Source: an uncultured Planctomycetia bacterium (GTDB lineage: Bacteria; Planctomycetota; UBA8108; UBA8890; UBA8898). Taken from it: a stretch of 36,201 nt of DNA. This document shows, piece after piece, positions 50-22,177 of this stretch. The position numbers and the translations under genes were made by a program. Position 1 is the stretch's first letter; each line of letters starts with the position of its first letter. Location: NCBI GenBank assembly GCA_964529985.1, contig CAZGYL010000001.1, positions 1-36,201 of the forward strand, in the 5' to 3' direction. The notes beneath the pieces were generated by a model. It was not told the origin of the DNA. It worked only from the letters and a program-made list of their open reading frames with translations, and ran no database searches.

Positions 50-409
50 GTGTCGTCATGCCGGCCCACTACTGCTTGCAAGGGAGATGACCAACGCTTC
101 GAGCTCCCCGGTGTCTTCGAAGTCACTGTGACGGTTACGGACGACGACGGTCTTAAGGGGTCGGACAGCGTCACGATACGCGTAAGGTTGCGCGAGTCTA
201 TCGGCGATACGAACGGAGACAGGCGCCTTGATATAGGCGATGCGATTTATCTTTTGGGTTATCTCTTCGCCGGAAGCGATCCTCCTGCGTGCAGTGAGCC
301 TTACGATTGCGCCGATGCGAACGGAGACGGGAAGATCGACATAGGCGATGCGATTTACCTGCTCCAATATCTTTTTGCGGGCGGCCCTCTCCCGGGAGGA
401 GGTGGATAA
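50..409 (+). CDS. PKD-domain C-terminal fragment plus a type-I dockerin repeat pair; possibly the 3' part of a gene interrupted by the in-frame TGA at 47-49
   Basis: ORF 50..409. RFELPGVFEVTVTVTDDDGLKGSDSVTIRV reads as the F-G strands of a PKD domain. Two dockerin-like Ca-binding repeats follow: DTNGDRRLDIGDAIYLLGYLF and DANGDGKIDIGDAIYLLQYLF. The same frame is open from base 2 to the TGA at 47-49. Confidence 0.55.
   Translation: MSSCRPTTACKGDDQRFELPGVFEVTVTVTDDDGLKGSDSVTIRVRLRESIGDTNGDRRLDIGDAIYLLGYLFAGSDPPACSEPYDCADANGDGKIDIGDAIYLLQYLFAGGPLPGGGG
206..379 (+). repeat. Tandem dockerin (EF-hand-like) repeat pair, duplicated at the nucleotide level
   Basis: 206-271 and 314-379 encode D-x-N-G-D-x-x-(L/I)-D-I-G-D-A-I-Y-L-L-x-Y-L-F. 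The core ataggcgatgcgatttat / ataggcgatgcgatttac is nearly identical in DNA. Confidence 0.75.
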
Positions 410-459
410 TTCCCGAAGTGGGTTCCGCTTCCTTGCTCATAACAACGCCCGCACGTAGG

Positions 460-2451: not shown

Positions 2452-2460
2452 GGGGGTGCG

Positions 2461-3558
2461 ATGCACGGAATGGTTTCCTATTTCATACGCAGAATTCTGC
2501 TTGTTCCGGTCACTTTCGTTTGTATCACCTTTCTGGTTTACGCGGTCCTGAGACTGACGCCGGGCGGGCCCATCGAACAGGCGATCCTGCGCATGCGCTT
2601 GGCGGCGCAAGGTGAAGCCGGGCTGGGTGCCGCCGGACTCACCGGAAGCGAGCTGCAGCTTACGGAAAAAGAGCTTGAATCCCTGCGGAAGTATTATCAC
2701 CTCGACCGATCCATACCGATCGGTTATTTGATTTGGCTGGGGCTTTGGCCGCAGGAGGACGGCCGTTTTTCAGGGATTCTCCAGGGTGACTTCGGCACTT
2801 CGAACGAGTTGAACGAACCTGTGCTTCAGGTCATAGCATCGAAATTCCCGATATCGCTTTACTTCGGCTTGATCGGCTACTTTGCGACATGGGCTGTTTG
2901 CGTGCCGCTGGGTATCCTCAAGGCGCTTAAACACCGCACGGCGCTCGATACGATAACCTCTGTGGCTGTGTTTTTCGGGTACGCCGTCCCGGGTTTTGTT
3001 GCATGCCTGCTTCTCATGGTGGGGGTGGCCGCCATTCCGACGCCGAGCGGCGAACCCCTTCTGCCGCTGGGGGACTTCCGCCCTCCTGACTGGGACGCGC
3101 GATGGGCTGCGGGTGATTTTTGGTACTGCATAACAAGTCAGATACGGCATACGATAATCCCGGTCATTGGTTATCTGATCGGCGGCTTCGCAACCATGAC
3201 GATCCTCATGAAGAACTCGCTGCTTGAAAATCTCGGTGCGGACTACGTGCGTACGGCTTTTGCCAAGGGCCTCACCGAACGGCGTGTAATCTTTCTGCAT
3301 GCACTACGCAACTCACTTATCCCGATTACAGCCGGGATCGGACATGCCCTCGGATTGCTCTTCGCCGGATCTTTTCTGATAGAGAAGACCTGCAACATCC
3401 ACGGCATGGGGCTTCTGGGCTACACCTCGCTTCTTGCGCGGGACTATCCGGTGATAATGGGAATATTGGTCTTCCTGGTCCTTATCCGCCTGACGGGCAA
3501 CATCATCTCCGACCTTGTTTGGGCGGCGATCGATCCCCGAATACGCTTCGGGACGTAA
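2461..3558 (+). CDS. ABC peptide-type permease (DppB/OppB/YejB-like)
   Basis: N-terminus MVSYFIRRILLVPVTFVCITFLVYAVLRLTPGGP is typical of this family. Multiple TM segments. C-terminal IISDLVWAAIDPRIRF motif. GAGGGGG lies 5 nt upstream of the ATG. Confidence 0.9.
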   Translation: MHGMVSYFIRRILLVPVTFVCITFLVYAVLRLTPGGPIEQAILRMRLAAQGEAGLGAAGLTGSELQLTEKELESLRKYYHLDRSIPIGYLIWLGLWPQEDGRFSGILQGDFGTSNELNEPVLQVIASKFPISLYFGLIGYFATWAVCVPLGILKALKHRTALDTITSVAVFFGYAVPGFVACLLLMVGVAAIPTPSGEPLLPLGDFRPPDWDARWAAGDFWYCITSQIRHTIIPVIGYLIGGFATMTILMKNSLLENLGADYVRTAFAKGLTERRVIFLHALRNSLIPITAGIGHALGLLFAGSFLIEKTCNIHGMGLLGYTSLLARDYPVIMGILVFLVLIRLTGNIISDLVWAAIDPRIRFGT

Positions 3559-3567
3559 GGAGGGATC

Positions 3568-5214
3568 GTGGTGCGCCTTCTTGTTTCGGTGGGGGTTTTG
3601 GTCGGAGGGTATCTCCTTACCGTTAAGATGATCCCGGCTCTTGTAGTGCGCACCGGACGGCTGCTTGGGTTTCGAATGGAGCTGAACCCGGTGACCCGCA
3701 AGCGGCTCGCCCGTTTCAGGAGGATCCGCCGCGGTTACTGGGCTTTTGTAACAATAAGCACATTCTATGTGATCTCCCTTTTCCTTGAGCTGCTTGTAAA
3801 CGACAAGGCGCTGATCATCTACTACAACGGCAAGGTGGCCTTCCCGGCTGTTGCACAATGGCTGAGCACGGTTCTTCCCTTTGTTGAAATCCCAAGTTAC
3901 GTGAAGAATTCGGATTTCGGACTTGTCGGCGAGGAGCCCGTTGACTTCCGCCTCTACAGGCGTTACTGCCTCAACCCCGAGCTGCTCCGTTTTGAACTCA
4001 AGAAGCGGAAAGCGGAGTTGGAAAAGCAGCGCGAATCCCTGAAAGAACGGGGAGAGGCGCCGAGCAAACCCAAGCCCGTGCCCAAACCGCCGCCTTTTGC
4101 GGAGCCCGAGCCTTCGCCGCCTCCCCCCGGCGCTTCCCCTCGGGAGCGCAAAGCGTATGAGGCTGCACACGCTGAATGGGAAAGGCGGCGCGATGCCTAC
4201 GAAGAAGCCCGGCTTGACGCCATCCTCGCATACGACGAGTATCAGGACGCTCTCCGCAGGTGGCAGGACTACCAACTCGACCTGAAAGTACTCAAAGATT
4301 TGGAAGCGGAAGTCCGGAAACTCACGGAAGCGTACGCGGGCTTCAAAGAGGGGAAGGCATGGGTACTTTTGCCTCTTTATCCTTATGGGCCTGAAGATCC
4401 GTTGCTTGACCTTCCGGGCAAGCCTCCGTACAGTCCTTCCTGGTGGCCGTACTTGAAGGCTTTCCTTACCGGACGGCCTCTCCCACGGGATCCTGAAGCG
4501 CGCGCGGCGCAGAAAATTCTGCCGCCGTGGTCACACCCGCTCGGCACCACGGATAACGGTTTGGACGTGGTGCCTCAGGTTTTGTACGGCTTCCGCATCG
4601 CCGTAACGTTTGCGGTTCTTGTAGCTCTGCTCGGGTACGCGGTGGGGGTTGTAGTCGGCGGGATCATGGGATACTACGGCGGGTGGACCGACATCCTGGT
4701 GCAGAGATTCATCGAGATTTACGGTTCCATTCCGTTTCTTTACACGATAATGATTCTCGCATCGATCACGCAGCCGGGTTTCTTTCTGCTTGCCGGAATG
4801 CTTGTCATCCTGCGCAGTTGGCTCGGTATTACGTATTACGTCCGGGGCGAATTTTACAGGGAGAAGGCAAAGGACTACGTGCAGGCCGCCATTGGAACGG
4901 GTGTTTCCGATCGGAAGATCATGGTCAAGCATATTCTTCCGAATGCGCTGGTTCCGGTGGTTACCTACGCTCCCTTTGATGTCGTCTCCTATATGCTGGT
5001 CTTGGTCTCACTGGATTATCTCGGCTTCGGACTGCCGCCTCAGACTCCCAGTTGGGGATACCTGCTTGAGCAGGGGAGGCGCTACGTGACGTCCTACCAA
5101 CACCTTATTTTGGTACCGACGATCGCGCTGGCCGGAACACTTTTCTGCGTTGTGGTTGTGGGGGAAGCGATCCGAGAGGCTTTCGACCCGAAGGTTTATT
5201 CCCGCTTGAGGTGA
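3568..5214 (+). CDS. ABC peptide-type permease (DppC/OppC/YejE-like) with an expanded periplasmic loop
   Basis: RKRLARFRRIRRGYWAFVTISTFYVISLFLELLVNDKAL matches the YejE/OppC N-terminal pattern. The conserved core runs from PLGTTDNGLDVVPQVLYGFRIAV to the end. AAGGAGGG sits just upstream of GTG 3568. A charged/Pro-rich segment of about 125 aa lies between TM1 and the core. Confidence 0.85.
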   Translation: MVRLLVSVGVLVGGYLLTVKMIPALVVRTGRLLGFRMELNPVTRKRLARFRRIRRGYWAFVTISTFYVISLFLELLVNDKALIIYYNGKVAFPAVAQWLSTVLPFVEIPSYVKNSDFGLVGEEPVDFRLYRRYCLNPELLRFELKKRKAELEKQRESLKERGEAPSKPKPVPKPPPFAEPEPSPPPPGASPRERKAYEAAHAEWERRRDAYEEARLDAILAYDEYQDALRRWQDYQLDLKVLKDLEAEVRKLTEAYAGFKEGKAWVLLPLYPYGPEDPLLDLPGKPPYSPSWWPYLKAFLTGRPLPRDPEARAAQKILPPWSHPLGTTDNGLDVVPQVLYGFRIAVTFAVLVALLGYAVGVVVGGIMGYYGGWTDILVQRFIEIYGSIPFLYTIMILASITQPGFFLLAGMLVILRSWLGITYYVRGEFYREKAKDYVQAAIGTGVSDRKIMVKHILPNALVPVVTYAPFDVVSYMLVLVSLDYLGFGLPPQTPSWGYLLEQGRRYVTSYQHLILVPTIALAGTLFCVVVVGEAIREAFDPKVYSRLR

Positions 5215-5217
5215 CCG

Positions 5218-6252
5218 ATGGCCGAGGGGCCCCCGTTGCTTGAGGTACACGACCTGAAGGTATACTTCGACGTCGAAGGCCGCACCGCCAAGGCGGTCGA
5301 CGGCGTGGATTTTTCGATAATGCCCAATGAGGTCTTCGGTCTTGTGGGGGAATCGGGATGCGGCAAGTCGGTCAGCGCTCTTGCGATTCTCCGGCTGATA
5401 CCCGATCCTCCCGGAAGGATCGTGGGAGGGCGTATCCTCTTCAGAGGACGAGATATCCTGCAGCTGCCGCTCAACGAGGTAAGGGCTTTGCGCGGCAGAG
5501 ACATAAGCATGATTTTCCAGGAACCGATGACGGCTTTGAATCCCGTCTTCAGTGTCGGGTTTCAACTGCGGGAATCGGTGAAGCGGCAGCGCGGAGGGCT
5601 TTCAAGAAGACAGGCCGACAGGAAGGCTGTAGAGCTCTTGCGGTCGGTCGGGATTCCGGACCCCGAGCGGCATCTTAAGAGTTACCCGCACCAACTTTCA
5701 GGCGGCATGCGGCAGCGCGTCATGATTGCAATGGCGCTTGCCGGGGACCCGAAATTGCTGATAGCGGATGAACCTACAACTGCGTTGGATGTCACGATTC
5801 AGGCCCAGATCCTGGAGCTTATCCTTTCGGTACGCGAGCGTTCCGGCTCAATGGCCGTATTGCTTATAACGCATGACCTTGCGGTGGTTGCAGAAACATG
5901 CAGCCGCGTGGCGGTAATGTACGGCGGAAAGATCCAGGAGATATCGCCCGTTGAGAGCCTTTTTGCGGAACCTCTTCACCCGTATACCCGCGGCCTCCTG
6001 CGATCGCTCCCAAGAGCCGACCACGCGCCCGGGTGCCGGCTTGAGGCCATACCGGGAGTTGTGCCTGATGCGATGGACTTCCCCTCGGGTTGCACGTTCC
6101 GTACGCGATGCCCGCTTGCCGAAACCCTGTGTGCGGAAGAAGAACCCGAGCTTATTGAGGTCATGCCGGGAAGGTATTGCCGTTGCCACAAGGTGAGTGC
6201 GGCTCCGGCGCTTCGCAGGGAGCCGCAGGGAAAACAACAGGGAACACCGTGA
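5218..6252 (+). CDS. ABC transporter ATP-binding protein (DppD/OppD-like)
   Basis: Walker A GESGCGKS, signature LSGGMRQR, Walker [14 protein letters not shown]-loop ITHDL. C-terminal Opp-type Cys motif [15 protein letters not shown]...YCRCH. Confidence 0.93.
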
Positions 6253-7274
6253 AAGAAGTACTTTTGGAACTCCGGGATGTCAAAATATATTTTCCCGTTT
6301 ACAGCGGGGTTCTGCTGCGTAAGACAGGTGACATAAAAGCGGTGGACGGAGTTTCGCTCAAGATATACAAAGGGGAAACCTTAGGCCTTGTAGGGGAATC
6401 AGGTTGCGGAAAAACGACCCTCGGCAGGGGGATCATGGGGCTTGTGCCTGTAAGCGGCGGGTCGATCCTTTTCAAAACGACGCAAGGCAATGTCATAGAT
6501 CTTGCGCCGCTTTCGCGCAGGGCGTACCGCCCGCTCCGCGCCGAGATTCAAATGATTTACCAAGACCCTTATTCCTCTCTCAATCCCCGCTGGACCGTGG
6601 ACCAGATCGTGGCCGAGCCCCTTGCGGTGCACAGGCCGGATCTCTCAAAGCGCAAACGCACCGAGCAGGTGCGTTTGCTCCTGAGCAAAGTCGGGCTTAC
6701 CGAGGAGCAGGCACACCGGTATCCTCACGAATTTTCAGGTGGACAGCGGCAGAGGATCGGTATTGCAAGAGCCCTTGCCACCGATCCGCGTCTTATTATA
6801 GCCGACGAGCCGGTTTCAGCACTTGACGTGTCGATCCAGGCCCAAGTCCTGAATCTGCTTCAAGATTTGCAGGATGAGTTCGACTTGACCTACATGTTCA
6901 TCGCCCATGACATCTCGGTGGTTGTTTATATGGCGCACAGACTTGCGGTGATGTACCTGGGAACGCTGTGTGAGGTCGGACCGGCTCTCGAGGTCTACAA
7001 ACGCCCCTTGCACCCTTACACCAAGGCTCTTATTTCAGCGGTACCTCTACCCGATCCGAGGCTCAAGCGGGCGGATCGCGTGCGCTTGGGCGGCGAAGTC
7101 CCGAGCCCACTTGCCGCTCCGGAAGGCTGCCCCTTCAGCACACGCTGTTCGGAAGCCTGCGAAGAATGTGAAAGCATTCGGCCTGAGCTCAGCGAGGTCG
7201 AATCGGGACGATTCGTCGCCTGCCATAGGGTCTCTCGGCCGAAGGCGGAACGGGAAACGGAGGCGGCGCGCTGA
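6249..7274 (+). CDS. ABC transporter ATP-binding protein (DppF/OppF-like)
   Basis: ORF 6177..7274 trimmed to GTG 6249, which overlaps the upstream stop as GTGA. Walker A GESGCGKTT, signature FSGGQRQR, Walker B LIIADEPVSALD, H-loop IAHDI. C-terminal GCPFSTRCSEACEEC...VACH. Confidence 0.9.
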   Translation: MKEVLLELRDVKIYFPVYSGVLLRKTGDIKAVDGVSLKIYKGETLGLVGESGCGKTTLGRGIMGLVPVSGGSILFKTTQGNVIDLAPLSRRAYRPLRAEIQMIYQDPYSSLNPRWTVDQIVAEPLAVHRPDLSKRKRTEQVRLLLSKVGLTEEQAHRYPHEFSGGQRQRIGIARALATDPRLIIADEPVSALDVSIQAQVLNLLQDLQDEFDLTYMFIAHDISVVVYMAHRLAVMYLGTLCEVGPALEVYKRPLHPYTKALISAVPLPDPRLKRADRVRLGGEVPSPLAAPEGCPFSTRCSEACEECESIRPELSEVESGRFVACHRVSRPKAERETEAAR

Positions 7275-8796: not shown

Positions 8797-11010
8797 TCAG
8801 CCCTGCCGGCCGACTTTGGATCCCGAAGTGCGCCGCACGGACTCGTTCTTCTTTTTCTCATTCACCTCCACCAGTTGGATCTGTACGGGACCCGGCGGAG
8901 AAATCAGCACATCCCCGACTGAGACATGAGTCACCCGGCCATTGCGGGTGCCCACACAGCGGTAAACGCCTTTTACGATTCCAGGGATTATGATTCCTCC
9001 TTGCGGATCGACGATGCATTTATGAAGTTGTCTGCCTGCGGAATCCAAGATTTCCAAGAAACGCGGAGGCCGACCGGAACTCACGTTTATACGGCCTCTG
9101 ACAAAAGGAGCCGGTGTGAGTTGGATCGAAATGGGACCGGCCGCGGGGACCTTAATGGAATGAAGTTCAACAGGTGCGAAGCCGTAGGCCGCAACAAGTA
9201 CGTCGTAGGTTCCGGGAGGAATCCCCTGGGCCACTCCTACTCCACGTTCGACTCGAAGCGCAGCGGGTTGATAACGCGAGCTGCCCTCACGGGCATACCA
9301 GAAGTTGACCCAAGAAAACTCAGGTGCAGCGCCTTCGACCGTCAGATTGAAAACCAGGCGTGTACCTTGAGTATCGTTCTGCTCGGGAGCCGGTTTGAGA
9401 ATCAGCACAACCTCTTCACCGAAGGAGTCGACCTGAATCGCTTCGCTTCTCAGCCCGGCGGCCCTTGCCATGATCAGGTGTTTTGCCTTTTCCAGGCCGA
9501 AAGCCAGGAATCCTCCCTCACCGTCGTAGAGAATATGAGTGGGGGCAACCGGCCTCCAACCGTTTGCAATGCCGGGATCGGAAACGCGCAAAACCACGCG
9601 CCCTCCCGGGACCGGCTGGCCGTTCTCGGTTATCATGCGGCCGTGGAGCTCCTCTCCTTTAGTGGCCGTACCGACCCAGGGGGTAAGTCGGGGGAGGACG
9701 ACTTCGCGTTCGCCTTCGCGCGAAGCCGCCATGGTGCGGTGCAGCCACCTTACGGCATAGCGGCCTGCGGGTACTCCTTCGATTTGAAACGCGCCGTTCC
9801 TATCGGTTCGCGCAACGAAAAGCTTCGGTTCAACAAACCTGCCTATTAGGAACTCAACGTTGTTCCAGTAAGACGGGCGATCGACCGGAAATATCTTGAC
9901 ACTGACACCGGCTACCCCTTTCCCCTCTTCGTCTACGATCCGCCCGGCGAAAGTGCATAGTTCGTTGAGTTTAACCGCAAAAGGCTTTCCGCTTTCAATC
10001 TCGCCCGCGCGATAGAGCGTCCAGCCGGGAGCGAAACCATCCGCGCTCGCCACAAGAACCGTTTCCCAAAGCACGCACGGGGCGTGCCAGGTAAAGCGCC
10101 CGCTGGCATCCGCAACGGTTTCGCGCCAGTCTTTTGAAGCAAAAAGCCCTTTTCGTACCAGCCAACTCCAACAAACTCTCGCGAAAGGTACCGGCCTTCC
10201 TGTGGGATCCAAAACCACGCCTTCCCGAGTGAGTGCCGGTTCAAGAAGGAAAAGAACCGGACGCGATCCGGTGTCGTATGCCTGAAGCCCCACCCAGCGT
10301 GTCGCTGCGGTGAATCCAGGGCATCTGACGTCTATTCTGAAAGAAAGGAGCTCCAACGTGCGGCGGGGGGGAGCGTCCGCTCTCAAAGTAATTCGAAGCG
10401 GCGGAAGGGGCAAAACACCGCAACCGTCCGGACCTGTACGTGCGCCTTGAAGAGGGGGGCCTTCAGGTTCCGAAACCGTGATCGTTGCACCTGCAAGGCT
10501 TTCCCCGGTCTGGGCGTTCAGCACTTTAACGCCGTATGACAGGTGGTCGGGAAGCGGCAATTCGAGGGGATTCGGCAGTTCACCTTGCGAGAGAAAGGTA
10601 ACGGGCGTGTAGTCCAGGTGCTGGACGTACAGTGTGAAGGAGGGGCCCCGATACGGAAGCGAAAGGCGGAACCTGCCGTTCTCGTCGGTTTGGATCTTTC
10701 CGCTCGGTCCCTCCTCCCACCGCACGGAGGCGCCGGGAATCGCCTCGCCGTCGCTCAAGCGTACGACGCGGCCTTCGAGCGTGGCCTGTTCCCCCTTTTT
10801 CCCTTCGGGTTCCTCATGCTTTTCCCCAGAAAACGGTGTGGGGGCGGGCCAGCGGTTCGCAACGGCAGGGTCGAACCGCTCGGCCTGCGGACGAGTGGTA
10901 CGGCCGGCAGGGTGGGAACCCCACGAACCCGCCCACCACCAGGCGTTGAGGGCGATCACGATTACAAAGGCGCCGAGGACCAACCACTCTCGTCGCCGTG
11001 AACCCATCAC
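8797..11010 (-). CDS. Membrane-anchored (N-terminal TM) protein with tandem carboxypeptidase-regulatory-like beta-sandwich repeats; paralogue of the sigma-fusion ectodomain
   Basis: N-terminal anchor EWLVLGAFVIVIALNAWWWAGSW. Repeated G-R-(V/I)-x-D-x-x-G-x-P-(V/I)-x-G/A-x-V motifs: GRVVRLSDGEAIPGASV, GVVLDPTGRPVPFARV, GRIVDEEGKGVAGVSV, GRMITENGQPVPGGRV. The start is GTG 11010 or ATG 11007. Confidence 0.8.
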   Translation of the reverse strand: MMGSRRREWLVLGAFVIVIALNAWWWAGSWGSHPAGRTTRPQAERFDPAVANRWPAPTPFSGEKHEEPEGKKGEQATLEGRVVRLSDGEAIPGASVRWEEGPSGKIQTDENGRFRLSLPYRGPSFTLYVQHLDYTPVTFLSQGELPNPLELPLPDHLSYGVKVLNAQTGESLAGATITVSEPEGPPLQGARTGPDGCGVLPLPPLRITLRADAPPRRTLELLSFRIDVRCPGFTAATRWVGLQAYDTGSRPVLFLLEPALTREGVVLDPTGRPVPFARVCWSWLVRKGLFASKDWRETVADASGRFTWHAPCVLWETVLVASADGFAPGWTLYRAGEIESGKPFAVKLNELCTFAGRIVDEEGKGVAGVSVKIFPVDRPSYWNNVEFLIGRFVEPKLFVARTDRNGAFQIEGVPAGRYAVRWLHRTMAASREGEREVVLPRLTPWVGTATKGEELHGRMITENGQPVPGGRVVLRVSDPGIANGWRPVAPTHILYDGEGGFLAFGLEKAKHLIMARAAGLRSEAIQVDSFGEEVVLILKPAPEQNDTQGTRLVFNLTVEGAAPEFSWVNFWYAREGSSRYQPAALRVERGVGVAQGIPPGTYDVLVAAYGFAPVELHSIKVPAAGPISIQLTPAPFVRGRINVSSGRPPRFLEILDSAGRQLHKCIVDPQGGIIIPGIVKGVYRCVGTRNGRVTHVSVGDVLISPPGPVQIQLVEVNEKKKNESVRRTSGSKVGRQG

Positions 11011-11796: not shown

Positions 11797-14298
11797 CTAC
11801 CTGGGCCGAGCACGCTCGCTTCGCAGGCGGATTTCAATCGGGGAGCTTCTGGGCAGCTGGATATCGGTAATTTCCACGGGCCGGTAGCCCGGCACGAAAA
11901 TACCGATACTGTAGGCGTCCCCCTCAAGCCCGGCGAGCTGAACGACACCGCTTCTTGCGAGCGTGTGGTACTTTAGGGTTTCGCCGCCTGCCGACCTGAG
12001 GGTCAGAGTCACCCGTTCGCTTTCCAGAAGGCCTTGTTCGGTTGTCAGCCGCAGCAGCAGGGAAGGCTGAAGAGGAGCGTACGGCCTGCGGCCCGACGAA
12101 AGGACGAGCGCCAGGTCGGCTGCAGGGTACTCCAGGGTGATCTCTTGAGGAAGCCCTTCAGGAGAGGTGATAAGCAGGCGGCAGGGAAAGCGCACGCGGG
12201 GGTCGAACCTGAAACTGCCGTCAGCAAGGCACTCGACGGCGCTTGAACGCTTTAGCCCCTCAGGAAGGCCGCTGGCCCACGTAAGAAGCACCCGGGCACG
12301 CGGTATCGGCTTCAGCCGCTCGTCAAGCACTCTTCCCCAAAGCTCTCTGACTTGCACCTTTCCCACCCACGGTACATGACGCGGAACCGTTAGGCAGGAA
12401 TCCGCTGCGGCTGCGAGGCCCGACAAGGTCACCCGGTAGCGTCCCGGCGGTACCTTTTCAAGGTGAAAGGCTCCTGTACCGTCGGTTACCCCTTCAAGAC
12501 CGCGCCCTCCGGGAAACCGTTTCAGGAGGCTTGCCACCAGAGGCTCAACACCGGCCGGCACAAGTTTGAAAACCATGTGGGCAAGAGATGACCCGTCGGC
12601 CGCAAGCAGTTTGCCTTCAACCGAAAACGCTTGACCCAAGTGAATCGAAAGCGGTTGGTCCGGTTCTTTGACTTCGGTTTGAAGGACAGCAGGAGCAAAA
12701 GGCTCCCGCCATACTGCGATGGTGCAGGCTCTGAATCTGCGCGGAAGCGTCAGGGCAAACCGGCCGGATTCATCCGCAACTGCTGCCAGTGGGCCGGGGT
12801 TCGGCAGGATCGGACCTTCGTCCGAAATTGAGCTTACCCTTGCAAGTACCCGCGCACTTGCAACGGGTCGTCCCTCAGGGTCGAACACAATGCCTGTGAT
12901 AGTAATCCCTCTTGCCAGGCGGATGATTCGTTCGCCCGGGCGGGCGCTCAAGGTAATAGGAATCCTACGTGGGACGTAACCGGGAGCTGAGATTTCAACC
13001 GAGGCGCTTGGAGGCCAACTGCATATTCTTCCTGCTGCAACGTCGGCTTGCATCTCGCCCGGGCGCAGCGCGACTTCGCCCGTCTCACCGGTTGGACCCT
13101 GCGTGAGCTCGGGGCAGCAGGATATGCGAAGTCGCAACAAAGCGCCTTCAAGCGGCGAGGCGCTTTGTGCGTCGAGCACTTTGAAGCGGAAAGGCTTGTC
13201 CGGAAGCAGGTACAGAAGAAGCCTGGTTTCAAATGGATCAACCACAGTGAAGCGTGCAGGTAGAAAGCCTTCCCTCTGGACCGTAAGTTTGAGAAGATTT
13301 TCGTGCGAGCAACTCAAAATCGCGGTTCCGTCGCTCTGCGAGAGAGTAAATGACCGAGGATCAGAGGCGTCGGAAATTCCAAGGACCGCCCCTTCGATCG
13401 GTTTCTCTTCAGGCCACGAAACAACAACCGCTGATACGCGTCTCATATCGGGCCTGAGCGCGCTTCTTCGTCCCGCCTCCAAGCGCTCTCCGAAATGCCC
13501 GATCGTAGGGCCGATCAGAGCCACCTTCGGGACCCTATCCCTAGGAGTCTCGGGCTGCGTGTTTCGGCCTCCCAGCAAAATGATTCCAACGAGGCAGACA
13601 GACGGAATTGAAAGCAAGGCCGCAAGCTTCGCTGCAGCCGAGGCCGGCTGCAGCCCTCCGCCCGCCGGTGAAGCGGGAAGACTCTGAGCCGCTTTTAAAA
13701 CTGTTTTATCCAATTGCCCGGCCGGAAGTTCTGCAGCAGAGACTCGGTCGGGCCACCCTGCCAGAGCTGCAAGCACCCCTGCGCCGAAGGTTTTTTTCAG
13801 AAGCTCCCTGCCTCTGACAAGTCGGCGCTGAACCGTGCGGACGCTGCACGCCATAAGGTCCGCAACTTCCTCCCGCGTAAGCTGGGCGCAGTGAAAATAG
13901 TAAAGCGTAAGAGCAAGTTCTTTATCCAAGGAGTTCAGCATGTCCCAGATTTCGCTGAGCAGAGGATCGGGGGGCCGCTGCTCGTGATCTCTGTTCCGGG
14001 CGGCCCGCATTTCCCTCAGCCGCCTGCGCTCTTCGGTGCGTATCCAGCGGCTGGCAAGCTGGTGCGCAAGAACGACCAGGTAGATTCTGGGGCTGGCGGG
14101 AAGCGGAAGCGCCGGGCGGCTGAGAAGCAGCCCCAGAAACACGTCCTGCGCCACATCTTCAGCTGCAGCCCAATCGCCTGTCACGCGGTAGGCCGTCGTT
14201 AGGACCAGATTGCGGTATTCGGCGTATAGGGCAAGAAAATTCTCTCGCGTAGGGCAACGGAGATATCGCTCCAGGGTATCGCCTCGCATCTTCCCCAT
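11797..14298 (-). CDS. ECF sigma-70 family factor fused through one TM helix to a roughly 590-aa extracytoplasmic carboxypeptidase-regulatory-like repeat domain
   Basis: Region 2: AAEDVAQDVFLGLL...YLVVLAHQLASRWIR. Region 4 HTH: LTLYYFHCAQLTREEVADLMACSVRTVQRRLVRGRELLKK (aa 1-170, nt about 14298-13789). TM helix AAKLAALLSIPSVCLVGIILLGG (nt about 13632-13567). Repeats follow: ITGIVFDPEGRPVASARV, VEGKLLAADGSSLAHMVF, LWGRVLDERLKPIPRARV. GGAGG lies 8 nt upstream of the ATG. Confidence 0.85.
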   Translation of the reverse strand: MGKMRGDTLERYLRCPTRENFLALYAEYRNLVLTTAYRVTGDWAAAEDVAQDVFLGLLLSRPALPLPASPRIYLVVLAHQLASRWIRTEERRRLREMRAARNRDHEQRPPDPLLSEIWDMLNSLDKELALTLYYFHCAQLTREEVADLMACSVRTVQRRLVRGRELLKKTFGAGVLAALAGWPDRVSAAELPAGQLDKTVLKAAQSLPASPAGGGLQPASAAAKLAALLSIPSVCLVGIILLGGRNTQPETPRDRVPKVALIGPTIGHFGERLEAGRRSALRPDMRRVSAVVVSWPEEKPIEGAVLGISDASDPRSFTLSQSDGTAILSCSHENLLKLTVQREGFLPARFTVVDPFETRLLLYLLPDKPFRFKVLDAQSASPLEGALLRLRISCCPELTQGPTGETGEVALRPGEMQADVAAGRICSWPPSASVEISAPGYVPRRIPITLSARPGERIIRLARGITITGIVFDPEGRPVASARVLARVSSISDEGPILPNPGPLAAVADESGRFALTLPRRFRACTIAVWREPFAPAVLQTEVKEPDQPLSIHLGQAFSVEGKLLAADGSSLAHMVFKLVPAGVEPLVASLLKRFPGGRGLEGVTDGTGAFHLEKVPPGRYRVTLSGLAAAADSCLTVPRHVPWVGKVQVRELWGRVLDERLKPIPRARVLLTWASGLPEGLKRSSAVECLADGSFRFDPRVRFPCRLLITSPEGLPQEITLEYPAADLALVLSSGRRPYAPLQPSLLLRLTTEQGLLESERVTLTLRSAGGETLKYHTLARSGVVQLAGLEGDAYSIGIFVPGYRPVEITDIQLPRSSPIEIRLRSERARPR

Positions 14299-14328
14299 CG
14301 AGAAGACCTCCTGAAAGTCACTAAGAGC

Positions 14329-14357
14329 ATTATGAGGGGTTCTCGGGCGCTGATCAA
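14329..14357 (-). promoter_or_regulatory. Sigma-70-type promoter candidate TTGATC-N17-CATAAT for the sigma-fusion gene
   Basis: Minus strand has TTGATC (14357-14352), a 17-nt spacer, then CATAAT (14334-14329). The site is about 30 nt upstream of the ATG at 14298, with the SD sequence in between. Confidence 0.45.
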
Positions 14358-14394
14358 GGCCGAAAAAACGTCGGAAAGCCGGCCGGCGGGATTC

Positions 14395-15141
14395 TCAGGT
14401 ACCCACACCAAGCCATTTCTGAAGTAGAAAGGTGATTCGGCCGATCAGTAAGGACACCCTCGCCATGACCGTGTAACCGAAGGACGCACCAAAAGAGACC
14501 ATAAGGAAAAGCACGCCCACCCGACTTGCGATCCCCCAGGCGCCCTTGTGCTCCACAGAGAAAAAGAAGTAGAACAAAACCGTCATGACACCCGTAAAGA
14601 CCACCAGGGCGTTGACATCGAAGGCGCCGTGTGCCCAAAGGGGCTGCATGGTACCTGCGATTTGCTGGAAGATGTAGTTGGTCACATACCTGGGGATTGC
14701 GAATCCCGCAGTGAAGCCCACGATGAACGCGAAAGATATGCGGCTCAGGTACGCGAGGGGCCGGGAGAAACGCAGGAAGAGAAAGAGACCGAGCGAGGCG
14801 GGAACGGCGACCTTCAGAAAGTACCATGCTCCGGCCTGGCGGGGCGGGTTGCGGAGGGGCTCGATTACCTCTATTACTATAACCGGATACCAAACCTGGA
14901 GGAATGTGTACGCAGCGGCGACACCTACGTACAAGTGCTCGGCGAAGGTGAAAAGGGGATTATCCCGGTACAGGAAGCTGTAAAGACTCAAAGTCAGCCC
15001 TGCGGCGGCAATGATTCCGAAACCCGACCAATCGGCTTTCAGCCGACCTGCGAAAAACAAAAGCGCATTGATTCCGGCGAAAAGCACCATGAACGTCAAC
15101 ACCAGCGGAACGTTTCTTTGCTGAGATCGTTCATTTTCCAT
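14395..15141 (-). CDS. Polytopic integral membrane protein, unknown family (module gene D)
   Basis: ORF 14395..15195 trimmed to ATG 15141 (MENERSQQRNVPLVL...), which overlaps the stop of the upstream gene by 11 nt. It is hydrophobic throughout, with about 7 predicted helices. I recognise no catalytic or transporter motif. Confidence 0.7.
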   Translation of the reverse strand: MENERSQQRNVPLVLTFMVLFAGINALLFFAGRLKADWSGFGIIAAAGLTLSLYSFLYRDNPLFTFAEHLYVGVAAAYTFLQVWYPVIVIEVIEPLRNPPRQAGAWYFLKVAVPASLGLFLFLRFSRPLAYLSRISFAFIVGFTAGFAIPRYVTNYIFQQIAGTMQPLWAHGAFDVNALVVFTGVMTVLFYFFFSVEHKGAWGIASRVGVLFLMVSFGASFGYTVMARVSLLIGRITFLLQKWLGVGT

Positions 15142-15964
15142 AGCTCGGGATCCTCTTGCGTTGCAGCAGGAAGAGCGCGTTTCCGGTGAAAACAAGCAAC
15201 ACGATCAAAAGATGGGCCGCACACTGCGCGCGCATTCCCGCCATAGCGGGCCCGCTCCGCCCGGTGAGGTACTCGTACTCCGCGGCTCCGGCCAGCCCTC
15301 CAAGCAGCCCCTCCAACTGGCCTGTCTGGATCCACGGGTAAAGATCCGGCGCAACGACCGCCGTGCAGCCTCCTCCGACCGGTATATGGGCTTTGTCCTG
15401 CCCGTATACGATCCACCACTCAAGCGTTTCCCCGTGGGTTATAACCATAAGGTAGTTGAAGTCACCCAGATTCCGGATGTCAGAAGCAACCGGAAGCTTT
15501 GAGATCGGAGTTCCCCGCCAATCGCGATCAAACGCTGCTGAGAAGCGCTCCGTCATGGCGATGATGAGAGCACGCTCGCCGGAACGGTATCCCAGATAAA
15601 CGTAATCCTTGCCGTACTGTCTGCCGTATCGCTTCGCCTCTTCTTCGAGCACGGATCCCACGAGGCCTACTCCTGCAGGCTGGTGGGTCATCGCAACTAT
15701 GCGGATTCCCAAACGAAAGCAGTGCCCCAGGAGCGTATGTGCCATGGGGTTGAGCTCTTCTTTGGAGGAAGGATCATAGTCCATGGAAACCAAGATACGC
15801 GCGCCGGGCTTTCGTCCCAGTGATTCGATGCGCTCGAAAACACGCCTTGTCAGAGGAGAGGGCCTTATGGGAAGGCGGAACGGCACCAGTATCGCAGCGA
15901 CAACCGAAGAGAAGAGCAGGACGAAGATAATCCGCCGGTCGAGATCGGCAAGTCTGCTGAGCAC
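15131..15964 (-). CDS. Bitopic membrane protein (TM, about 200-aa domain, TM), unknown family (module gene C; paralogue of gene A)
   Basis: GTG start with AAGGAGG 5 nt upstream. N-terminal TM IIFVLLFSSVVAAILV and C-terminal TM AAHLLIVLLVFTGNALFLL. Topology and co-linear motifs are shared with the 326-aa protein. Confidence 0.7.
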   Translation of the reverse strand: MLSRLADLDRRIIFVLLFSSVVAAILVPFRLPIRPSPLTRRVFERIESLGRKPGARILVSMDYDPSSKEELNPMAHTLLGHCFRLGIRIVAMTHQPAGVGLVGSVLEEEAKRYGRQYGKDYVYLGYRSGERALIIAMTERFSAAFDRDWRGTPISKLPVASDIRNLGDFNYLMVITHGETLEWWIVYGQDKAHIPVGGGCTAVVAPDLYPWIQTGQLEGLLGGLAGAAEYEYLTGRSGPAMAGMRAQCAAHLLIVLLVFTGNALFLLQRKRIPSYGK

Positions 15965-16001
15965 TATCGCCTCCTTCCAAAGGGAGTCATTTCAGGAGAC
16001 A

Positions 16002-16652
16002 CTATTCGCCTCCGAGGTACGTGCGCTCGACGCCGAGGATGATCCGAAGCGAGGTCGCTACGATTCCCAGTCCCATGCCGATCAGAATCGCCCGCTTCAC
16101 CGCCATGTTGGGGTAATCAAGAAGCCAATCTGCAAGCTGTGGGATTCGGATGCCGAGCAGGTTGCCGATGGGGATCCGGCCGATCATAACCACAAGCGCA
16201 GCAAGAAGAAGCACGGTCGCCTCAAAAGTTTTTGCTCTAAAAGCACGGTAAGCGGCCGAAGCTATGAAAAACGCCAAAAGAGAAAACATGGTGGCGCTGC
16301 ACGGCACCTGTATGTAGTTGTAAAGCCAATCGACCCGGCGGTCCGCCAGCTCCGTCACGAAAGGCCCCTTGCCCCCGTTGTAGAGCCCGAAAAAAAGGGT
16401 GAGCGCGAATCCGACGAATACAACGAAACTGTAGGCGGATCCCGGACTCCGACTTCGAATTTTCGCCCAATGTACGCTCAGCAGGTTTACAAGTCCCAGA
16501 ATCAAGGCGAAGCCGAGTACGATACTTCCCCATTTTGAAAGCGTCTCGCTTACGGCATTTGCCGTCGGGTGGGAGCTCCAATAGACTGCTATGCACACAA
16601 CGCCGGTTATGGAAGCCACGGCTGTGGGAAGCACCCTGTGAAGGAACCTCAC
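16002..16652 (-). CDS. Polytopic integral membrane protein, unknown family (module gene B)
   Basis: GTG start with GGAGG 6 nt upstream. About 6 hydrophobic helices, for example IVLGFALILGLVNLL, SFVVFVGFALTLFFGLY, MFSLLAFFIASAAY, ATVLLLAALVVMIG, AILIGMGLGIVATSL. Confidence 0.7.
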   Translation of the reverse strand: MRFLHRVLPTAVASITGVVCIAVYWSSHPTANAVSETLSKWGSIVLGFALILGLVNLLSVHWAKIRSRSPGSAYSFVVFVGFALTLFFGLYNGGKGPFVTELADRRVDWLYNYIQVPCSATMFSLLAFFIASAAYRAFRAKTFEATVLLLAALVVMIGRIPIGNLLGIRIPQLADWLLDYPNMAVKRAILIGMGLGIVATSLRIILGVERTYLGGE

Positions 16653-16695
16653 GCCAACCTCCGGTTTTCTCTCTGCACAACAGCGCCCGCTGCGG

Positions 16696-17676
16696 CTATT
16701 TCAAGAGAAAGAAGTCCTTCAAGACATGGCAGCCGAGTGACTCAAGCAGGAAGCCGGCGGCCAGAGCGGCCATAAGCGCCGCCTTCGCGCAATCCTGAGC
16801 TTTCAGGCTTCCAAGAAGTACGGGCTGTCTAGAGAGGTACGCGCTCGCTGCGTAGAACTCATCGCCCATGATCACATAGTCGCAGGTTGTAACAAAAAAC
16901 GGCAACTGCGTGTACTTATCGGTTCCTGCGATCTGGAGAGTGCCGCAACTGAGCCCGGTCTCAGTGAGAATAAGTGATTCAGCGTAAAAAGGACCGAAAT
17001 ACAAGACCGAGGCCGGCCTCGCGCGCACGATAAGGCCGCTCAATGCTGCGGCGTAACTGAATTGCTCAGCTGCAAGAAAGACAACCGACCGGCGCTTGAA
17101 AGCGCTCCCCTTCGCCTCTTCTGTATACGCTTCCTTGACTGTTTCTTCGGTTACGGCATGTACTCCGGGATAAATGTTATACACTCTGAGCTCGGCTCCG
17201 TAACGAGCACAAAGTCGAGCCACATGTTTCAAGACATTTACAGCCGCTACGGTCGGGATCTCCGTAAGAGGGAGGAGCCCGGGTGAGAAGAAAAGCGGAC
17301 GGCCCATTTCAACGGCCCTGCCCACCGCCTGTTCGAGGGCATCCAGGCCGGGAATCCGACGCACGAAGATCTCAGGCCGCCTGCGGGCGTATATCGTCCA
17401 GCCCACAACGAGAATCGACATCAGAATGGTTACAACGGCATGGCCCGAGTACTTGGTGTTGAACCAACCGGGCTGCACGGAGGCTTTGCTGAGCACAAGC
17501 CTTCCCTGAGCGGGTCGCCCTTGGGAATGCGCGGGTTTCTCCCAATCGGCTCCGGCGGAAAAACACCTCAGGCACAGCAAGAGAACAAGAGCCGAAAAAA
17601 GCGTTCTAAAGTGCCTGATCCAGAAACCACTTTCCGGTTCACACAATTCGCTGCGACGAGGCATAAAGCTTTCCAC
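16696..17676 (-). CDS. Membrane protein (signal/TM, TM, about 200-aa domain, TM), unknown family (module gene A)
   Basis: ORF 16696..17676 starts at GTG; ATG 17664 is an alternative. Hydrophobic segments: FRTLFSALVLLLCLRCFSAGA, AVVTILMSILVVGWTIYA and C-terminal AKAALMAALAAGFLLESLG. The central region begins IPGLDALEQAVGRAVEMGRPLFFSPG. Confidence 0.65.
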   Translation of the reverse strand: MESFMPRRSELCEPESGFWIRHFRTLFSALVLLLCLRCFSAGADWEKPAHSQGRPAQGRLVLSKASVQPGWFNTKYSGHAVVTILMSILVVGWTIYARRRPEIFVRRIPGLDALEQAVGRAVEMGRPLFFSPGLLPLTEIPTVAAVNVLKHVARLCARYGAELRVYNIYPGVHAVTEETVKEAYTEEAKGSAFKRRSVVFLAAEQFSYAAALSGLIVRARPASVLYFGPFYAESLILTETGLSCGTLQIAGTDKYTQLPFFVTTCDYVIMGDEFYAASAYLSRQPVLLGSLKAQDCAKAALMAALAAGFLLESLGCHVLKDFFLLK

Positions 17677-17686
17677 GCGCTTCAGG

Positions 17687-17707
17687 CCGTTCCTCCCTGA
17701 GGAACGG
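17687..17707. promoter_or_regulatory. Perfect 9-bp inverted repeat with a 3-nt spacer between the kinase gene and module gene A
   Basis: Plus strand reads ccgttcctc-cct-gaggaacgg. In minus-strand RNA the 3' arm plus the loop contains AGGGAGGAA, the only SD-like sequence upstream of gene A. Confidence 0.5.
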
Positions 17708-17745
17708 TCGGCCTTTTTCCGTGTGGAGTATTTGGGTTTCCGACT

Positions 17746-20230: not shown

Positions 20231-22177
20231 TCAGTGCTTCAGGAGGTGGAAACCGGCTCCATCGGTTCCCAACACAACGCGGTTTCCAGGCGCGGGGCTT
20301 GCGCGCATTACGGTGACAGGCCTCGGTCCCAAGCGGCTCTCAAGTTGCAGCCATTTGTTCCCTTCACCTGGAGACCACCACAACCCATCAGGCTCAAAAG
20401 CACCTGAATGAGCTTTGCCGAAACACGCAACAAGCCCCTTGGATCCCACCGGGACAAGCCCCCTCGGTTTCAGCGGGAGGCTCAAAACCCGCTCCCAAGC
20501 TTTCCCTGAAAACTTCCAGACGCCTCCCAGCGCTGCTGCGAAAAGTTCCGGGCCGCGCTTTGCAACCGGTCCGGTTGCACCGGGAAGAGCCGAAGCGAGG
20601 CGCAGCCAAGTTCTGCCTCCGTCGGTACTGCGCCATACGCCTCCTCTGGGGCCGTCCCACGTGAGGTAAAGCTCAAGCGGTGAGAAAGCCGTAAAGAAGC
20701 CTCTACGGCCGCCGGGCGGAAGCAGCAAGACGGGCAGCCAGCCCGATCCACTCCTTCGGTGGACTGCACCACCGAAAAGAGCAAGGCAGGCCGGCCGAAG
20801 CGGCTCAGGGGGCAGGAAATCCAAGACCGGCCCTCTTTCAATACGCACAAAGAGTCGCCAGGCAGGCGGGAAGGTGGAAGTCAGGTAAACTCGGGTACCT
20901 CGAGGCCCACCCAGTCTCCAGGCGAAAAGCTCGATGCGTTCACCTCCAGCGAAACGCACCCGGTCAGGGACCAGGTCGGGCTCGGGCAAGCGCAGCCTCC
21001 GCCAATGAGTTCCTCCGTCAAGCGAATACCAGGAAGTTCGGTCAGCCGTTATCACCATGAGCGGACTCCCGCCGGGTGCGAATGCTGCGTCTTCAGCCCG
21101 GAGAAAGGAAATTCCACTTCCCCGGAAACCTTGTTCCTCAGGAATGCTGCTTGGCATGAACGTTCCGCCGCGCTCAACAATAAGGTATTCAGGGGACCAA
21201 ACCGCAAGACCGGGTCCTCCTTGTACGCCTTTGAGGGGACGGCCCGTCTGCTTGACCGGCTCGGAATCGAGCAGTTTTCGAATCGGGTGCCATGAGGGCT
21301 CTCCGGCTGAACGTTTCCAGAGCCCGCCGCTCCGCGGGCCGCTGCAGACGCAGTACAGTGCGCCGCCGGAGAGTGCGAGCCGTTCGACGCGGCTGCCCTC
21401 AGGGAGGCCTTGCACCCAGGGTTCCCATGCTCCGGTGGGGCCGGTGGATCGGTAAACCCCCCCTCCTTCCAGCAGAACTACAAATGAGGTCGTACCGGGA
21501 AGGCGGGCGGCTTGAAGTGCTCCTTCGCGGGGCAATCCTTGCAAGGACCGGGTCCACCTCCTGCCGCCTGTTGTTGAGAGAAAGACCCCCAGTGAAGTCG
21601 CCAGGCAGCCCAGGCGCCCCGTCGCAAACGCACACGAGCGTACCGATCCAAGTCCTACGGCTGCAAGTCGCCAAGTGCGGCCGAAGTCTTCCGATCTGTA
21701 AAGCTTTCCTTCGTTGCTTACGGAGGACCGAGGGTAAATCTCAAGCTTCAGTCCCGTACCGGCCAGTAAGGTTTCCGGCGTCAACGGCACATGAACGAGT
21801 ACAGCCACAGGACACCCGAAGAAAGGGGATCGAGCAAGCGGCAGTCCGCTGCCGAAGCGCTCCCAGGTGACCCCGCCGTCCGAACTGCGCACCACTCCGT
21901 TGAGGGTTCCGGCAAGCACTGTATCGGGATTCTGGGGGTGGAAAAGAAAAGTCTGTACAGGAGGAACGCCCGGACTTCGGGCGATAGAATAAGTTCGGCC
22001 GCCGTCGGAGCTGCGCCAGATTCCTCCCCAGGGACCTGCGACCAAAAGGCTTCCCGCTTTATGGGGGCTGAAAACCAAAGCTGCAGGAGGCCCGCCCGGT
22101 CCCGGTTCACATAGAGGTTCGGTTGTAAACCGCCCGGTCGCAGAGGAAAAGAACAGAAGAAGGCACCAAGCAGGCAT
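20231..22177 (-). CDS. Secreted BNR/Asp-box repeat beta-propeller protein (sialidase/Ycf48/sortilin-like fold)
   Basis: Signal-like MPAWCLLLFFSSATG. Repeated S-x-D-x-G-x-T-W boxes: SSDGGRTY, SSDGGVTWERF, SEDFGRTWRLA, STTGGRRWTRS, SLDGGTHWRRL, STDGGRTWLRL. GAGGAGG lies 9 nt upstream of the ATG. Confidence 0.85.
   Translation of the reverse strand: MPAWCLLLFFSSATGRFTTEPLCEPGPGGPPAALVFSPHKAGSLLVAGPWGGIWRSSDGGRTYSIARSPGVPPVQTFLFHPQNPDTVLAGTLNGVVRSSDGGVTWERFGSGLPLARSPFFGCPVAVLVHVPLTPETLLAGTGLKLEIYPRSSVSNEGKLYRSEDFGRTWRLAAVGLGSVRSCAFATGRLGCLATSLGVFLSTTGGRRWTRSLQGLPREGALQAARLPGTTSFVVLLEGGGVYRSTGPTGAWEPWVQGLPEGSRVERLALSGGALYCVCSGPRSGGLWKRSAGEPSWHPIRKLLDSEPVKQTGRPLKGVQGGPGLAVWSPEYLIVERGGTFMPSSIPEEQGFRGSGISFLRAEDAAFAPGGSPLMVITADRTSWYSLDGGTHWRRLRLPEPDLVPDRVRFAGGERIELFAWRLGGPRGTRVYLTSTFPPAWRLFVRIERGPVLDFLPPEPLRPACLALFGGAVHRRSGSGWLPVLLLPPGGRRGFFTAFSPLELYLTWDGPRGGVWRSTDGGRTWLRLASALPGATGPVAKRGPELFAAALGGVWKFSGKAWERVLSLPLKPRGLVPVGSKGLVACFGKAHSGAFEPDGLWWSPGEGNKWLQLESRLGPRPVTVMRASPAPGNRVVLGTDGAGFHLLKH

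Follow-up and report, generated by a model that had tools for sequence, protein, structure and literature searches.

Which system do four closely spaced membrane-protein genes encode, and did they arise, as their layout might suggest, by doubling of a smaller module? The question is raised by positions 14395-17676 of a 36,201-nucleotide (nt) stretch of contig CAZGYL010000001.1, from an uncultured Planctomycetia bacterium (assembly GCA_964529985.1); we call the whole of this stretch the window. All four genes lie on the minus strand, in the order A (16696-17676; 326 amino acids (aa) from a GTG at 17676, or 322 aa from the ATG at 17664 chosen by the gene caller), B (16002-16652; 216 aa), C (15131-15964; 277 aa) and D (14395-15141; 248 aa from the ATG at 15141). 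A belongs to the Pfam family DUF6754, B is a protein of six transmembrane (TM) helices, C consists of an alpha/beta domain between two TM segments, and D is polytopic. The original prediction, made from the letters of the window, had regarded them as a tandem duplication of an anchored-domain gene and a polytopic gene, placed behind an FGGY sugar kinase and perhaps sharing its promoter.

The ABCD genes and their distribution

The predicted layout proved exact: 43 nt separate A from B and 37 nt separate B from C, while C and D overlap by 11 nt. Independent gene calls on a near-identical 79.7-kb metagenome contig from the Joint Genome Institute agree, with an identical gene order and proteins of 322, 216, 277 and 248 aa. 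The three good Shine-Dalgarno sequences that had been noted are likewise present, as GGAGG-type sites upstream of A, B and C. We regard all four as real coding genes, since homologues at E < 1e-40 number in the hundreds to thousands for each of them.

An alignment-based scan with A, using one genome per species, found an A homologue in at least 596 species genomes, and the best 80 loci were analysed; such a scan was needed, as a single-sequence scan of the species genomes with the window's own A gave no match. With five contig loci (L001-L005) added to the 80 genome loci (L006-L085), the set comprised 85 loci. B, C and D follow A in that order at 69 of the 72 loci with at least 3 kb of sequence downstream of A, and D homologues of 240-249 aa come after C at 73 loci. 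To judge by the record titles of the best 80 loci, the carriers belong to about 12 phyla; they include Gemmatimonadota, Latescibacterota, Nitrospirota, Methylomirabilis, WOR-3, Zixibacteria, Poribacteria, Stahlbacteria, Edwardsbacteria, Myxococcota (Myxococcales) and Thermodesulfobacteriota. The planctomycete carriers, with anammox genera among them, are Brocadiaceae, Scalindua, Anammoxibacter, Phycisphaerae and Planctomycetales. By this measure of gene order the four genes are inherited together as a single conserved unit that encodes four membrane proteins, and the earlier idea of an uncharacterised membrane module whose genes occur together was thus borne out. The genes overlap at L001, by 4 nt between B and C and by another 4 nt between C and D.

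A occurs without B, C and D at five loci. At three of these the DUF6754 gene divergently adjoins a gene whose flavoprotein product, about 700 aa long, has Fer2_4, Pyr_redox_2, Fer4 and BFD-like 2Fe-2S domains (L026, 7090-9186; L042, 3351-5492; L045, 7301-9451), a possible redox partner of the solo form.

Architecture of the four proteins

A matches the Pfam model PF20539 (DUF6754) over positions 3-256 of 257, with 307.7 bits and E=7e-92 against a cut-off of 27, and is a full-length member of this family; more than 3855 homologues of A were found. The absence of any recognisable family, claimed originally for all four proteins, thus stands for B, C and D and falls for A; DUF6754 is, nevertheless, a catalogue entry without known function that covers A and none of B, C and D, and we found no paper that mentions it. 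From its N-terminus, A consists of a signal-like helix, a short periplasmic linker, a TM helix at about residues 78-98, an alpha/beta domain about 190 aa long and, at about 298-318, a last TM helix at the C-terminus. A typical homologue is about 400 aa long, with a signal peptide, a periplasmic Ig/FN3-like domain (DTPNDAGGSxxxxW), a TM helix, the conserved domain and the C-terminal TM helix; the Ig/FN3-like domain, which sometimes holds long coiled-coil inserts, is found in most homologues and lacking in the window's A.

Conservation in A is very strong. About 70 residues are invariant among 30 homologues from several phyla, including the segments GRATEMG, SQEVVKE, IQIAGTD, TQLPFFxTTCDY and YAASAY, and a Cys is among them. 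The conserved domain is predicted to be cytoplasmic, because a positive cluster, ARRRxxxFxRR, comes right after the first TM helix and because homologues carry an N-terminal signal peptide and an outer domain. The AlphaFold2 (AF2) model of A is poor, with a mean predicted local distance difference test score (pLDDT) of 57; moderate confidence is confined to the first strand-helix-strand-helix-strand part and does not extend to the second half, where conservation is highest. Foldseek comparison of this poor model with the PDB gave generic Rossmann-like matches at E>1e-3 with low template-modelling (TM) scores, which we do not take as homology.

C begins with a TM helix, continues with a flavodoxin/Rossmann-like alpha/beta domain of about 210 aa and ends in a long TM helix that carries the invariant residues His251 and Asn262. 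Its AF2 model is confident (mean pLDDT 88.7, predicted template-modelling score 0.82), and the order of TM helix, soluble domain and C-terminal TM helix that had been claimed for A and C alike is upheld by topology prediction and by the models. A positive-inside analysis places more positive charge on the termini of C than on the flanks of its domain, and for this reason both termini are predicted to lie in the cytoplasm and the domain in the periplasm. No match to the PDB was obtained for the C model with Foldseek at E<1e-3; the best were generic Rossmann or flavodoxin-like folds with low TM-scores, again not taken as homology, and those of higher probability included a molybdenum-cofactor-binding flavodoxin-like protein (6y01, probability 0.98).

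The polytopic proteins B and D had both been assigned six to seven TM helices. This is right for B, with six and with both its N- and C-terminus predicted inside by hydropathy and the positive-inside rule, while D has about seven to eight. The most conserved segment of B is an invariant cytoplasmic loop between TM4 and TM5, SAAYRxFRA. D has an invariant Glu197-His198 pair at the cytoplasmic membrane interface, followed by a conserved C-terminal segment, FGxxFGYTxMxR.

A HMMER scan with the B profile gave 2872 clusters at 50% identity (E<=1e-3). Among the best 150 clusters, 63 exceed 245 aa in length; most of these match the profile in parts, interrupted by an insertion between TM3 and TM4. This loop, predicted to be periplasmic, is a hot spot of domain insertion in B homologues. 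Large inserts of this kind are present in P0365 (L087, 165-1505), P0423 and P0441. One insert is a C-like domain that matches positions 32-185 of the C profile with E=3.5e-42, and the locus reads A, B with its insert, C. Another B homologue has a WD40 propeller at the same place, and a further insert carries the periplasmic DTPxDAGGS motif of A, at E about 1e-3; by eye, this last insert also shows repeats resembling those of carbohydrate-binding type. The fusions tie B physically to C. They also fit the predicted placement of the C domain and B's TM3-TM4 loop on one side of the membrane, probably the outer. As read from these homologues, the complex varies at its periplasmic face and is fixed in its membrane and cytoplasmic parts.

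We searched for relatives of the four proteins in several ways. Walker A and B, LSGGQ and EAA (EAAxxxG) motifs are absent from A-D. Pfam, NCBIfam, PADLOC and the PDB hold no family for B, C or D, the first two having been scanned with single sequences and with 31-35 members of each, and the precomputed Pfam field is empty for every listed homologue of B and C. Neither the major facilitator superfamily (MFS), the resistance-nodulation-division (RND) and tripartite ATP-independent periplasmic (TRAP) families nor other characterised secondary transporters were matched by A-D in Pfam, NCBIfam or PDB sequence profiles. For B and D, 31 members each gave no match at E<=1 to the TM families of ATP-binding cassette (ABC) transporters (BPD_transp_1, ABC2, FecCD, MacB-type). 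The absence of Walker, MFS, ABC, RND and TRAP signatures, noted originally by inspection, is therefore confirmed by motif and profile searches. Archaeal DUF373 membrane proteins (PF04123) offer a lead only: 6 of 31 B homologues match weakly the TM part of that model (positions 173-310 of 335), but the best E-value, 0.025, is far below the standard of the family threshold, and DUF373 is itself uncharacterised.

Neighbouring genes and the possible role of ABCD

Two kinds of neighbour recur around the block in other genomes. The first is a group of four further conserved genes, which directly precede A at 39 of the 55 loci with enough upstream sequence. In order, they encode two small proteins, the first a membrane protein of about 134 aa and the second soluble and about 135 aa long, then an actin-fold ATPase of the GlmL/MutL family (595-623 aa; PF13941, E=2.7e-126) and a very conserved barrel-sandwich-hybrid protein of 372 aa (RnfC_N, 28.5 bits against a cut-off of 25.6; NQRA_N more weakly). 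GlmL/MutL proteins are accessory ATPases of operons for B12-dependent mutases (PF13941, TIGR01319). Although the upstream ATPase of most ABCD genomes matches PF13941, it misses the NCBIfam cut-offs, scoring 219 bits where GlmL proper requires 475 and 152 where the subfamily model requires 204. It is also longer by about 120 residues at the C-terminus, has no mutase genes nearby and is absent from the window. PADLOC models of anti-phage defence matched neither A-D nor the four upstream proteins, sequence-profile searches of the PDB gave nothing meaningful for A, B, C, D, the barrel-sandwich protein or the GlmL-like ATPase, and literature searches on PF13941, GlmL, DUF373 and Q1Q4A2 returned nothing relevant.

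The second kind of neighbour is the Opp/Dpp-type (peptide/nickel/opine) ABC importer, whose genes repeatedly lie next to ABCD or are interleaved with it. Two OppD/F-like ATPase genes (ABC_tran with oligo_HPY) come directly after D on the same strand at 10 loci, at spacings from a 4-nt overlap to a 139-nt gap. Eight loci (L001, L011, L013, L016, L017, L022, L023 and L025) have such a pair next to D and no permease or binding-protein gene within 8-10 kb. At one of them, in Anammoxibacter (L022), the first ATPase gene overlaps D by 4 nt and Pfam detects no BPD_transp_1 or SBP_bac_5 within 10 kb; a single-domain response-regulator gene (14169-14567) lies between the two ATPase genes there, and a hybrid histidine kinase gene lies upstream of A. 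The order at L049 and L057 is binding protein, permease, permease, barrel-sandwich protein, A, B, C, D, ATPase, ATPase, so that the ABCD block is inserted inside an opp-like operon. An SBP_bac_5 gene lies directly upstream of the cluster at nine Latescibacterota loci; at L004 D faces a complete opp operon in convergent orientation, and the same convergent ATPase pair stands at the contig end at L008. The window has a complete Opp/Dpp-type operon of its own (307-7274, plus strand; SBP_bac_5, two BPD_transp_1 permeases and two ABC_tran+oligo_HPY ATPases by Pfam), 7 kb from gene D. ABCD resembles these importers further in having two different polytopic subunits, but A-D match no ABC family, and the EAA loop, Walker and signature motifs of such systems are absent.

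We tentatively propose, with a probability of about 0.4, that ABCD is a four-subunit inner-membrane module for translocation or transduction that is linked to peptide-type ABC uptake. Its subunits A, B, C and D would make up one conserved inner-membrane complex, in which two TM helices hold the conserved alpha/beta domain of A at the cytoplasmic face, and likewise hold the Rossmann/flavodoxin-like domain of C at the periplasmic face. B, with six TM helices, and D, with seven to eight, are mutually unrelated and would form the membrane core; they have invariant charged or polar residues in loops and at membrane interfaces. In most genomes a larger cluster is present whose first half comprises the small membrane protein, the small soluble protein, the GlmL-like ATPase and the barrel-sandwich protein, and A-B-C-D is its distal half; in this organism the block stands alone. 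Such a module may move or couple something across the inner membrane alongside peptide-type ABC uptake, with separate cytoplasmic ATPases powering or regulating it. The earlier suggestion of an uptake or membrane-remodelling complex of an undescribed type keeps its force in one respect, as no characterised relative was found, and loses it in the connection with sugars. As far as the tools and the literature show, the four-gene system and its extended cluster are undescribed and fall by sequence outside the known transporter, redox and defence families, although a known fold may be concealed in B or D.

Several points weigh against this proposal. The topologies of A-D are derived from hydropathy and the positive-inside rule only, and a known fold could still hide in A, whose model has a pLDDT of 57, or in B or D. 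None of the four upstream partners has a homologue anywhere in the window at E<=10, and some 16 of the 55 informative loci also lack them, the Brocadiaceae loci included, so these partners are not obligatory in cis. Opp operons are common, the window has no ATPase gene adjacent to the block, and many other ABCD loci have no ABC genes nearby. The D-adjacent ATPases of the Latescibacterota and Gemmatimonadota loci group in a single clade, to which the canonical opp ATPases of the window and of L004/L008 do not belong, and independent associations with Opp genes may therefore number perhaps three to five rather than twenty-five. Finally, ABCD need not itself transport anything, since L049 and L057 keep canonical permeases.

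A bolder account would make ABCD the membrane part of a primary transporter that has gone unrecognised, or, put more broadly, the membrane core of an unrecognised class of ATP-driven transporters or mechanotransducers. B and D would be non-canonical TM domains for an OppD/OppF-type heterodimer, a GlmL-like ATPase or both, the tethered domain of C would act as receptor or coupling domain on the outside and that of A on the inside, and SBP_bac_5 proteins would be optional receptors. The ATPase pairs that follow D at the eight loci lacking a nearby permease or binding-protein gene, above all the Anammoxibacter pair with its 4-nt overlap, speak for it, as do the lone SBP_bac_5 gene that precedes the cluster at the nine Latescibacterota loci, the invariant cytoplasmic loop of B, which could dock a partner, and the presence of two different ATPases and two different polytopic subunits. 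There is also a precedent: in Escherichia coli the OppD-like ATPase SapD gives ATP dependence to Trk potassium uptake, which is not an ABC system. B and D, however, have no EAA loop and no likeness to any ABC TM-domain family, the window and many other loci lack an adjacent ATPase, and L049 and L057 have canonical permeases in the same operon. The orphan ATPases, moreover, share ancestry with those embedded in the opp-like operons and may serve permeases encoded elsewhere. We consider it doubtful that ABCD is such a transporter, and equally doubtful that a class of this design, with Rossmann-like domains tethered on opposite faces and able to use SBP_bac_5 receptors, is widespread in poorly studied phyla.

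The block deserves attention whichever of these views is nearer the truth. It is widespread, with homologues in the thousands and carriers that include anammox bacteria, Nitrospira, Methylomirabilis, Gemmatimonadota and Latescibacterota; its subunits are very strongly conserved and three of the four belong to no family in the databases. The GlmL-like ATPase, the barrel-sandwich protein, the interleaving with Opp/Dpp genes and the fusion of B with a C-like domain turn what would be a bare set of uncharacterised genes into hypotheses that can be tested. Should the complex prove to be a new membrane partner of ABC or actin-fold ATPases, it would represent a new architecture in bacterial transport or envelope biology; should it be only an accessory of peptide uptake, it would still be a component so far missing from the picture of how environmentally important lineages acquire nutrients.

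Duplication, redox and sugar-kinase readings

We then considered the tandem duplication itself, in which A would be related to C and B to D, in a pseudo-symmetric complex built from two copies of an anchored-domain and polytopic module. A and C share the order of TM helix, alpha/beta domain and TM helix, and both models begin helix, strand, helix, strand, helix, strand, although the A model is poor. BLASTP found no similarity between A and C or between B and D. Profiles from alignments of 60-190 sequences were then compared with hhalign, with reversed sequences as controls. Full-length A and C scored 23.6 (P 0.02) against controls of 19.3-19.8, within the range of 19-25 over all reversed pairs; their soluble domains alone scored 19.7 (P 0.03), slightly above controls of 13.8 and 14.6; and full-length B and D scored 18.1 (P 0.09), below controls of 23.8 and 24.8. 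The alignment of A with C runs co-linearly over the whole length and pairs GRPLFFSP with GARILVSM, together with the next helix and strand, but hhalign gives it a probability of 1.6-2.1% and leaves the second of the two originally proposed motif pairs unaligned. The shared motifs are thus not above the level expected by chance.

Other properties also argue against a doubled pair. B and D differ in their number of TM helices, the domain of A is predicted to be cytoplasmic and that of C periplasmic, and to begin with strand-helix-strand-helix-strand is a generic trait of Rossmann-like folds. An isolated A-B or C-D pair was seen in no genome examined; it is whole ABCD blocks that are repeated in tandem, at L044, L066 and L070, from which it follows that the evolutionary unit, as read from gene order, is the four-gene block and not a two-gene pair. 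Two blocks stand in tandem or nearby at these three loci and at L081, L070 reading A B C D A B C D, and L068 has an additional C gene after D. At the level of sequence A shows no significant similarity to C, nor B to D: by these profile comparisons a duplication of B and D is unsupported and one of A and C unproven, and we hold the two-gene duplication as a whole to be unlikely. An ancient relationship between A and C at the level of the fold is possible on the models, because both begin with the same succession of helices and strands.

A third alternative likens ABCD to Rnf and Na+-NQR, as a membrane redox or ion-translocating complex with flavodoxin-like cofactor domains on both faces, an NqrA/RnfC-like barrel-sandwich subunit and two small polytopic subunits. 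The logic is similar: in other genomes there is a cytoplasmic barrel-sandwich subunit, six-helix membrane subunits are present, and one subunit has an anchored periplasmic domain, the sizes and sidedness of the subunits recalling NqrA, C, D and E. The flavodoxin/Rossmann-like domain of C with its 6y01 match, the RnfC_N and weaker NQRA_N matches of the upstream 372-aa protein, the flavoprotein genes beside three solo A genes, the invariant Cys of A and the invariant His residues in D and in the TM helix of C can all be cited in its favour. Yet A-D match no Rnf-Nqr, FMN_bind, NQR2_RnfD or other redox family at E<=1, nor, by sequence, any subunit family of these complexes; the C domain does not have the FMN_bind fold, and neither cofactor motifs nor conserved Cys/His clusters fit for haem or iron-sulphur centres are present. 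The barrel-sandwich domain is a generic fold whose profile retrieves no NqrA or RnfC chain from the PDB, and the protein is absent from the window. We regard a redox role of this kind as decidedly unlikely.

The last alternative, a sugar-uptake system coupled to the FGGY kinase and co-transcribed with it from a promoter-like site at 20215-20187, is most improbable, since, even though the kinase is a genuine FGGY protein (best model XylB, 263 bits) on the same strand as A, with a 69-nt spacer and no canonical terminator between them, its homologue was found at none of the 85 loci, a stem-loop lies within the spacer, no sugar-transporter signature is present in Pfam or NCBIfam, and the promoter-like site, which does exist with 10 of 12 matches, is of a kind that occurs at the chance rate (2 found in the region against 1.9 expected). 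The 287-aa neighbour has no homologue at the 85 loci either. Because no other examined locus has a kinase homologue, we view the position of the operon behind this gene, the original reason for thinking of sugars, as incidental, and we dropped the kinase link.

The stem-loop in the spacer (17685-17709, minus strand, 11 bp) was itself considered as a regulatory element. Its 3' arm holds the GGGAGGA Shine-Dalgarno sequence of A, and on the gene strand it is preceded by a run of A and has no U-tract. The spacer folds with -30.4 kcal/mol, which is unremarkable against shuffled sequences (z = -1.67), and the candidate was rejected for want of statistical support. When the window and seven stand-alone loci were scanned against Rfam, neither a riboswitch nor any other RNA was detected near the operon. 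Four Acido-Lenti-1 RNA motifs (RF01687, 44-48 bits) were found in a Brocadiaceae genome (L046, 16983-19210), several kb downstream of ABCD.

A few other genes near the operon may be recorded. A Sortilin/BNR-repeat protein is encoded two genes upstream of it (window 20231-22177, minus strand), and at L039 (6028-8664, minus strand) a Sortilin/BNR protein with a Por secretion tail adjoins a solo DUF6754 gene; this recurrence is probably a coincidence. An 833-aa protein encoded at 11797-14298 of the window (minus strand) combines regions 2 and 4 of an extracytoplasmic-function (ECF)-type sigma-70 factor with a hydrophobic segment and several CarboxypepD_reg repeats, and would thus be a sigma factor fused to a large domain of extracytoplasmic type. 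A second CarboxypepD_reg protein, of 737 aa, is encoded just downstream of it, at 8797-11010.

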